Below are positions 4,944-5,019 of a stretch of DNA of 6,136 nt, in pieces. Source of the stretch: a virus (lineage: Duplodnaviria > Heunggongvirae > Uroviricota > Caudoviricetes); the IMG/VR virus record IMGVR_UViG_2778261249_000001, positions 1 to 6,136 of that record; one strand, written 5' to 3'. Positions within the stretch are counted from its first letter, which is position 1, and every line of letters begins with the position of its first letter. Under the pieces are notes generated by a model that saw only the letters and a list, made by a program, of their open reading frames with translations, made no database searches and had not been told where the DNA came from. The position numbers and the translations under genes are program-made.

Positions 4944-4972
4944 ATAATACGATATGTACTTTTAGAATGCAA
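4944..4972 (-). promoter_or_regulatory. PR-like promoter for cro and the early rightward-operon equivalent
   Basis: On the minus strand: -35 TTGCAT (complement of 4967-4972), 17-bp spacer, -10 TATTAT (complement of 4944-4949). Predicted start is about 20 nt upstream of the cro ATG. Confidence 0.55.
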
Positions 4973-5019
4973 ACAAAAAATACATCTTGTGCATGGATGG
5001 TTTTAGTACAGAGCGTAAT
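4946..5019. promoter_or_regulatory. Candidate OR operator sites (15-bp dyads A[G/A]TAC-N5-GTA[C/A]T)
   Basis: AATACgatatGTACT (4946-4960, overlaps the PR -10), AGTACagagcGTAAT (5005-5019, just upstream of the cI start), and a weaker AATACatcttGTGCA (4979-4993). The same dyad type recurs at PL. Confidence 0.5.

Follow-up and report, generated by a model that had tools for sequence, protein, structure and literature searches.

The immunity region of the Shiga toxin (Stx) phage VT2-Sakai belongs to the cI2c/cro4 type (PMC3430580). The public records AP000422.1 (VT2-Sakai) and AP005153.1 (Stx1 converting phage) annotate 'putative operator' features, three at the right operator (OR) and three at the left operator (OL), together with a putative rightward promoter (PR), maintenance promoter (PRM) and leftward promoter (PL). 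Table S1 of PMC10742460 gives these 17-mers under the names VT2-SA OR1-3 and OL1-3, and that paper attributes a comparative description of these immunity regions to Fattah et al. 2000 (Genes Genet Syst 75:223). Other lambdoid Stx phages, 933W and BAA2326, likewise possess CI repressors and a tripartite OR, and in BAA2326 both the repression of PR and the activation of PRM from OR2 have been shown experimentally (PMC3317979, PMC5977221). However, these two phages are of different immunity types with unrelated operators (e.g. BAA2326 OR1, ATAACTGTGCGTAATG), and we set their footprints aside as not applicable because the operator sequences differ.

We analysed a 6136-bp stretch of DNA from a tailed phage (IMG/VR record IMGVR_UViG_2778261249_000001, positions 1-6136; 'the window' is this whole stretch), in particular the operators at its divergent cro and cI genes. 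An earlier note, made from the sequence alone, had proposed that the cro-cI intergenic region carries three repressor-binding dyads and that a lambda-style switch is preserved there with a different DNA specificity. Our analysis makes it very probable that the window holds an immunity region of VT2-Sakai/Nil2 type in a lambda-like backbone, with six predicted operators for CI and Cro. Its specificity is distinct from that of lambda and is not new, as operators of the VT2-Sakai/Nil2 type have been annotated since 1999.

Immunity type and operator sites

The cro-cI segment of the window was 99.5-99.8% identical to that of the E. coli phages vB_EcoP-683R2, 720R6, Dewey and Louie. Its DNA was 94.3% identical to VT2-Sakai (AP000422.1), and identities of ~94% were also found with Stx1 converting phage, Stx2 phage II, Nil2, phage 2851 and many O157:H7 Stx phages. 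By tblastn, the N-terminal domain of CI was 96.3% identical to that of Stx phages of the VT2-Sakai group (phage 1717, Stx2a-converting and PA-series phages), which assigns the window to this immunity type.

Direct reading of the sequence confirmed the three OR dyads, AATACGATATGTACT at 4946-4960, AATACATCTTGTGCA at 4979-4993 and AGTACAGAGCGTAAT at 5005-5019. The strict pattern ARTACNNNNNGTAMT (ARTACN5GTAMT) occurs at three places in the 6136 bp, one of them palindromic, and was absent from 200 dinucleotide shuffles. The third match, AGTACAAATCGTACT (5826-5840), forms a perfect dyad and falls between the two hexamers of a strong PL-like promoter, and a mismatch-tolerant search added AGAACATTTTGTATT at 5801-5815 and AATACAAAGCGTTAT at 5768-5782. 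This cluster at PL had been overlooked in the earlier note and brings the total to six sites, OR1-3 and OL1-3. A symmetric 17-bp matrix derived exclusively from the six operators of Salmonella phage L was then run over the entire window. The six best matches started at 4945, 5825, 5800, 4978, 5004 and 5767 with scores from 18.7 down to 11.0, followed by a match at 9.45, and shuffled sequences contained a mean of 0.25 matches scoring at least 11.0. The dyads are thus far beyond chance. The match at 9.45 (5784-5800) was dropped as a seventh site: it is AT-rich and its dyad is not conserved. The operators, the promoter candidates and the two regulatory genes are as follows (scores are those of the phage L matrix).

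4702-4917, minus strand: cro, 71 aa, HTH_3, recognition helix TQGAIGHW
4973-4944, minus strand: PR candidate from the promoter scan, TTGCAT (4972-4967) or TTTGCA, 17-18 nt, TATTAT (4949-4944)
4945-4961: OR1, 17-mer TAATACGATATGTACTT, score 18.7 (best in the window), VT2-Sakai operator 12181-12197
4978-4994, centre 4986: OR2, 17-mer AAATACATCTTGTGCAT, score 11.3 (rank 4), VT2-Sakai operator 12149-12165
4993-5021, plus strand: PRM candidate, weak -35 ATGGAT (4993-4998), 17 nt, TAATAA (5016-5021)
5004-5020: OR3, 17-mer TAGTACAGAGCGTAATA, score 11.2, VT2-Sakai operator 12123-12139
5029-5688 (public start 5035), plus strand: cI, 219 aa from the MKMKW start, HTH_3 helix TQGGIGHW and lambda-like S24 domain
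5767-5783: OL3, AAATACAAAGCGTTATA, score 11.0, VT2-Sakai operator 9952-9968
5800-5816: OL2, TAGAACATTTTGTATTG, score 15.7, VT2-Sakai operator 9919-9935
5814-5842, plus strand: PL candidate from the promoter scan, TTGACT, 17 nt, TACTAT
5825-5841: OL1, AAGTACAAATCGTACTA, perfect AGTAC/GTACT dyad, score 17.8, VT2-Sakai operator 9894-9910

The six annotated 17-mers of AP000422 map one-to-one onto OR1-3 and OL1-3 of the window and correspond to the 15-mers with one additional base on each side. All half-sites match those of VT2-Sakai save for one position of OL3 (GTTAT in the window, GTTGT in VT2-Sakai). The six operators and PR, PRM and PL lie at homologous positions in the two phages, whereas the spacer and inter-operator bases differ. 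VT2-Sakai also carries extra genes between cI and OL, which in the window follows directly after cI, and it encodes a P-like helicase loader in contrast to the primase-helicase of the window.

The statement of the earlier note that lambda-type operators are lacking was borne out. The best matches to the lambda operators or their consensus had four to six mismatches, and all lay outside OL and the OR dyad cluster (4945-5020), with one six-mismatch match starting at 4917, at the cro start codon. Conversely, the six sites differ at seven to ten positions from the lambda consensus TATCACCGCCGGTGATA, and the CI N-terminal domain is only ~22% identical to that of lambda, which places the window outside imm-lambda. 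The operators share with lambda the 17-bp format and the bases A2, A5 and C6 of each half (TAGTACA in the window versus TATCACC in lambda), so that a non-lambda sequence is written in a lambda-like format.

OR1 covers the PR spacer and the first five nucleotides of the PR -10, in agreement with the proposed overlap of the first dyad with this hexamer (TTTGCA-18-TATTAT, minus strand, 4973-4944). The PR candidate sits where AP000422 places its 'putative major rightward promoter', and its transcript would start near 4937. The TAATAA named in the earlier note as a possible PRM -10 is present at 5016-5021 and is overlapped by OR3; the candidate -35 of PRM overlaps the last two nucleotides of OR2, as in the lambda arrangement. 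The 'putative maintenance promoter for cI' of AP000422 sits at the homologous positions 4994-5022. At PL, OL2 covers the first three nucleotides of the -35 and OL1 covers the spacer and the first five nucleotides of the -10. The window therefore has three related operators over PR and PRM and a second cluster at PL, as expected of a lambdoid immunity region. In the window as in lambda, cI and cro are divergent, the three plus three operators are 17-bp pseudo-palindromes, OR1 and OL1 lie over a -10 and OL2 lies over the PL -35; cII, nutR, nutL and N of the window are lambda-like.

We compared the operator spacing of the window with that of lambda (distances between centres, or from a centre to the ATG at 5029).

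OR3 to cI ATG: 17 bp in the window, 19 bp in lambda
OR2 to cI ATG: 43 bp in the window, 42 bp in lambda
OR1 to cI ATG: 76 bp in the window, 66 bp in lambda
OR1-OR2: 33 bp in the window, 24 bp in lambda
OR2-OR3: 26 bp in the window, 23 bp in lambda
OL1-OL2: 25 bp in the window, 24 bp in lambda
OL2-OL3: 33 bp in the window, 20 bp in lambda

The centre of the middle site (4986) is indeed 43 bp upstream of the ATG, as had been noted. The wider claim that the OR sites are positioned like those of lambda held for the distances of OR2 and OR3 to the ATG and for OR1 over the PR -10, but not for the OR1-OR2 distance, which is 33 bp instead of 24 bp. OR2-OR3 has the more lambda-like spacing (26 bp). OR2 ends ~5 bp upstream of the PR -35 without overlapping it, unlike OR2 of lambda. 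Its left half is good and its right half is degenerate (GTGCA), giving two mismatches to the symmetric consensus.

In Pfam scans, CI of the window matched HTH_3 (8.3e-11) and Peptidase_S24 (8.7e-29). Residues 82-216 were ~98% identical to the C-terminal domain of lambda CI (structures 3bdn and 1f39), and alignment to lambda CI (3bdn) showed that the QAGM cleavage region and the GNSM and FKKL motifs with the catalytic Ser and Lys are all retained, as in a self-cleaving repressor. In contrast, the N-terminal domain has diverged from that of lambda and is ~15 residues shorter at its N terminus. Cro is an all-helical HTH_3 protein without a match to the lambda Cro family, and among solved structures it is closest to a 'lambda repressor-like protein' (28tn) and to the N-terminal domain of P22 C2. 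Cro and the CI N-terminal domain of the window share 35% identity, and their third helices are nearly the same (TQGAIGHW and TQGGIGHW), as would be expected if both proteins read the same operators.

In the alignment, the equivalents of lambda CI Q33, E34 and Q44 are kept in CI of the window, and Glu occupies the positive-control positions E34 and D38. Q33 and Q44 of lambda CI read the A at operator position 2 in the 1LMB complex. This position is A in 11 of the 12 half-sites of the window, and in relatives with K at the Q44 equivalent it becomes T or G. Lambda S45 is replaced by G, and operator position 4 is T in the window versus C in lambda. Together with published structural genetics of lambda, the alignment suggests that these residues correspond to these bases and that the acidic residues would serve in positive control.

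Conservation among alleles and across phages

The earlier note had named enrichment of the dyad and its conservation in homologous immunity regions as a check on the proposal. The dyad passed this check, with conservation both among alleles of this immunity type and in more distant relatives. We scanned IMG/VR with the CI N-terminal domain and found 80 loci with an identical domain, which together with phage records gave 32 different alleles of OR and 33 of OL. In the 5+5 half-site cores, five of 60 positions were variable, compared with 58 of 150 in the remainder of the OR and OL regions (Fisher p = 5e-6, in a test that counts variable columns among closely related alleles and hence few mutational events). 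The central five bases of the sites varied as freely (10/30) as the inter-operator DNA (43/108). Every core variant was a singleton allele. Among the 32 OR alleles, the OR1 core varied at one position (4947 A/G, AATAC to AGTAC), the ten OR2 core positions were unchanged in 31 alleles while two of its spacer positions varied, and the OR3 core was invariant. The four variants at positions 7 and 11 of the 17-mer retain a purine and a pyrimidine, respectively, which suggests a sharper consensus, ARTACR-N3-YGTAYT.

Relatives of the N-terminal domain at ~50% identity were detected by tblastn in Salmonella, Klebsiella, Enterobacter and Vibrio phages, and six loci were inspected. One of them, mEp515 (42% N-terminal domain identity), was dropped as it has no comparable cro-cI arrangement upstream. 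The resulting set of seven phages from five host genera comprised the window, VT2-Sakai, phage L, Klebsiella phi15.1 (ST11-OXA48phi15.1), Enterobacter BHUENT6, g341c and Vibrio P2. The five relatives have a strong dyad beside cro, a half-degenerate middle site and a third dyad just upstream of cI. In the middle operator the cro-proximal half is good and the cI-proximal half degenerate (4978-4994 in the window, 1439-1453 in locus L160 of phage L, 1142-1156 in locus L163 of Klebsiella phi15.1, 1146-1160 in locus L165 and 1444-1458 in locus L161). Throughout the seven phages OR1-OR2 measures 32-34 bp, about three helical turns, OR2-OR3 measures 25-26 bp, and a conserved ATG follows 42-44 bp after the OR2 centre. 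A half-degenerate OR2 about three turns from OR1 is, on this sequence comparison, a conserved design feature.

Among these phages, each type of recognition helix goes with its own half-site.

TQGG(I/L)GHW or TQGAIGHW (window, VT2-Sakai, L, Klebsiella phi15.1): half-site A(A/G)TAC
TKGAVSHW (g341c, BHUENT6): half-site (T/G)ATAC
SQSAIAHW (Vibrio P2): half-site ATTAC

The immC region of Salmonella phage L/ST64T resembles the window in its helix (TQGAIGHW), in the dyads AATACatttcGTACT, AATACaatatGTGTG and AATACatctcGTAAT with three further OL sites, in its OR spacing of 34/26 bp and in the 43 bp between OR2 and the ATG. However, its CI N-terminal domain is only 54% identical, and its host and C-terminal domain are different. 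By sequence, phage L is thus of a different type, although the window appears to work like it. ARTAC-N5-GTAMT dyads were present in phage L (MW013502, L160 1405-1479 and 2217-2286) and in Klebsiella phi15.1 (L163 1109-1181), whose repressor N-terminal domains are 52-54% identical, with the helix TQGxIGHW or TQGGLGHW. Judged from these half-sites, the two phages may be partly cross-immune with the VT2-Sakai type of E. coli. In the genome paper of epsilon34, the N-terminal domain of its repressor was placed closest to those of L, VT2-Sa and Nil2, and the operator consensus WTACRAWWTGTAT was proposed for epsilon34/g341c (PMC2629481). These phages share the repressor family and the OR layout with the window, but the helix TKGAVSHW and half-site [T/G]ATAC predict a different specificity.

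The comparison also bears on the start of cI. The ATG at 5029 is seven nucleotides past TAATAA, and in each of the seven phages 16-18 bp separate the OR3 centre from the ATG (in the Klebsiella phage, 12 bp from the first ATG and 18 bp from the second). The MK-x-x-W N terminus is kept in phages L, g341c, BHUENT6, Vibrio P2 and Klebsiella phi15.1, and the cI start of phage L has neither a Shine-Dalgarno sequence nor a second ATG. The conserved distance and these features of phage L suggest that cI probably starts at 5029 (MKMKWYE), two codons upstream of the public annotation at 5035 (MKWYE). The PRM transcript would then be leaderless, as in lambda, and start at or near the A of this ATG.

A species-level genome scan with the CI N-terminal domain yielded only three true relatives (E. 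coli and two mis-binned contigs of metagenome-assembled genomes); the other 71 loci were generic HTH_3 proteins of 30-48% identity and were unusable for operator comparison. Among complete E. coli genomes, the immunity type was found in 776 of 5,426 (~14%), including Nissle 1917, whose prophage (NZ_CP022686, L162 885-1227) bears the same OR. According to PMC5987069, K-12 is protected against lambda and Stx phages by a 'phage repressor (pr)' of Nissle. We rejected the identification of this pr with the present cI: the primers map to a cII-family gene and the oop-terminator region of the Nissle prophage, outside cI, so the paper is silent on these operators. One of its quantitative PCR primers also matches 4330-4348 of the window.

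Gene layout and lambda-like backbone

An open reading frame (ORF) map and Pfam scans of the window revealed a lambdoid early region in the orientation opposite to the usual lambda map. The features outside the switch are listed below.

1-1204, minus strand: small unassigned ORFs (ORF map)
1269-3149, minus strand: Toprim/DnaB-type primase-helicase (ORF map and Pfam)
3257-4117, minus strand: O-like initiator (ORF map and Pfam)
4110-4256, minus strand: DUF2740 ORF (ORF map and Pfam)
4289-4582, minus strand: cII (ORF map and Pfam)
5719-5740, plus strand: terminator-like hairpin with a T-run after it, located past cI and inside a short lambda-like stretch (5711-5746)
6070, plus strand: start of N

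The divergent cro and cI genes are separated by 111 bp, as in a lambdoid switch. BLAST against lambda gave 98% identity over 4249-4695, spanning cII, nutR and tR1, 94% over 5278-5682, spanning the cI C-terminal domain, and 95.5% over 5848-6136, running from roughly the PL start across nutL into N; ninB-like DNA of lambda was found at 81-230. No BLAST match to lambda was obtained in 4696-5277 (cro, OR and the cI N-terminal domain) or in 5747-5847 (OL and PL). These two segments are the sole non-lambda parts of the stretch from cII to N (4249-6136) and hold all six sites; lambda identity restarts at 5848, ~6 nt past the PL -10. From its sequence, this arrangement is a classical immunity substitution in a lambda-like backbone. 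The two specificity patches flank the lambda-like C-terminal domain of cI and must therefore be co-inherited despite the recombination-prone homology between them.

We also located a CII box (TTGCGTTTGTTTGC, 4560-4573) at the 5' end of cII, corresponding to the promoter for repressor establishment (PRE), a nutR boxB (GCCCTTTTTCAGGGC, plus strand, 4662-4676) and a nutL boxB (GCCCTGAAGAAGGGC, 5898-5912) upstream of the lambda-like N. With these lambda-type control elements intact, the antitermination and establishment circuits appear to be lambda's own and the swap to be limited to repressor specificity.

The O-like gene contains a cluster of GTGACA/TGTCAC repeats at 3691-3763, with the short inverted repeats GTGACAgcgcTGTCAC and GTGACActttttGTCAC followed by two more GTGACA, at the position of lambdoid ori iterons within the O gene. 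The replication module comprises a fused Toprim primase/DnaB-like helicase (626 aa) rather than a P-type loader of lambda, with the O-like initiator as partner, and the same module is present in Sf101, mEp043 and some Stx2a phages. No Rfam family scored above its gathering threshold in the window.

Alternative explanations and possible wiring of the switch

The divergent genes, the HTH_3 and S24 domains of CI, the helix shared by CI and Cro and the operator layout agree with the proposal of a lambda-style switch with a different DNA specificity. We propose that the six 17-bp pseudo-palindromes with the consensus A-R-T-A-C-R-N3-Y-G-T-A-Y-T are operators common to CI and Cro, and that both proteins would read the ARTAC half-site through their near-identical helices. 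CI at OR1 and OL1 would occlude the -10 of PR and PL. At OR2, ~43 bp upstream of the probably leaderless cI start, CI would be placed to activate PRM through the conserved acidic residues of helix 2, and since OR3 lies over the PRM -10, PRM would be shut off by high CI levels and by Cro first. The lambda-identical C-terminal domain would confer dimerization, cooperativity and RecA-stimulated self-cleavage. It probably would also confer looping between OL and OR; the clusters are 0.76-0.88 kb apart, a distance that appears compatible with CI-mediated looping. The sites with their enrichment, conservation and layout, and the protein domains, are shown by the present data; in this model we infer binding, the order of affinities, the promoter starts, the activation of PRM and the pair of sites that cooperate.

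Several observations weigh against this model. The public operator features are labelled 'putative', and we found no footprint or electrophoretic mobility shift assay (EMSA) of cognate CI or Cro for this immunity type in the searchable literature. A full-text literature search for the operator strings returned no paper; the strings do occur in the supplement of PMC10742460. The sole biochemistry found is an EMSA in which lambda CI, not the cognate CI, bound the VT2-Sakai 17-mers at 3.7-6.4 µM (PMC10742460), which is weak and near non-specific. A consensus promoter scan of the window misses PRM, whose start is a prediction; such a miss is expected of an activator-dependent promoter. The close relatedness of the alleles limits the conservation test, as stated above. 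Finally, as OR1 and OR2 are 33 bp apart and OR2 does not overlap the PR -35, a lambda-style cooperative OR1-OR2 pair is not guaranteed.

If only the strong dyads were operators, the middle site at 4979-4993 would be unbound or without a role and OR would be a two-site switch. The two mismatches of this site and its degenerate GTGCA half are consistent with such a reading, and matches with up to two mismatches are not rare (1.3 expected per window). However, the independent phage L matrix ranks the site fourth in the window, its ten core positions vary in only one of 32 alleles while two spacer positions vary, seven phages have a half-degenerate site at this place (distances of 32-34 bp to OR1, 25-26 bp to OR3 and 42-44 bp to the ATG), and AP000422 annotates it as an operator. 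We therefore regard a two-site OR as unlikely. Selection on promoter hexamers in AT-rich DNA, rather than repressor binding, might also conserve the repeats, given that four of the sites (OR1, OR3, OL1, OL2) overlap a -10 or -35 element and the region is AT-rich. Yet conserved halves lie outside the hexamers (the left halves of OR3 and OR2, both halves of OL3, and in OR1 and OL1 the half farther from the promoter), the dyad is repeated six times and always has a 5-bp gap, other phages show a change of half-site along with that of the recognition helix, and the strict pattern was absent from the shuffles, all of which makes this explanation highly improbable.

The LexA box has the consensus CTGT-N8-ACAG. 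The dyad ARTAC-N5-GTAYT does not fit it, which argues against binding of host LexA; nor does another phage regulator seem a good candidate, as the sites are inherited, within a lambda backbone, together with PL and with the cassette that comprises cro and the N-terminal domain of cI, and co-vary with the helices of CI and Cro. Nothing specific speaks for such a factor beyond the LexA-like S24 domain of CI, which is publicly annotated as 'LexA family', and we give this possibility hardly any credence. Operators for CI and Cro are thus by far the best explanation of the six sites.

The half-degenerate OR2 lies 32-34 bp from OR1 and only 25-26 bp from OR3, which points to filling of OR2 either by an unusually long OR1-OR2 contact or jointly with OR3. 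That this repressor family uses such a conserved, non-lambda cooperative wiring is a tentative idea that we consider rather doubtful. If OR2 fills together with OR3, the activation of PRM would be coupled to auto-repression and repressor levels would stay low; the outcome would be a 'hair-trigger' behaviour such as has been described for the Stx phages 933W and BAA2326.

The TQG-x-IGHW helix and the ARTAC half-site that they share could make the repressors of VT2-Sakai-type phages, phage L and Klebsiella phi15.1 cross-reactive. Furthermore, with its lambda-identical C-terminal domain, CI of the window could form mixed oligomers with lambda CI, and such oligomers might underlie the cross-immunity between lambda and VT2-Sakai that PMC10742460 attributes to Fattah et al. 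2000.

In this study we add to the existing annotations their statistical and comparative validation, a sharper consensus, the cross-genus layout with its weak OR2 and a probable correction of the cI start. The observation holds but is an ordinary one, and it leaves the general understanding of such switches unchanged. In E. coli O157:H7, many Stx-converting prophages, among them VT2-Sakai and Stx1 and Stx2 phages, have their induction governed by this immunity type, and its operator code is of practical interest for predicting superinfection immunity and the induction of toxin phages.

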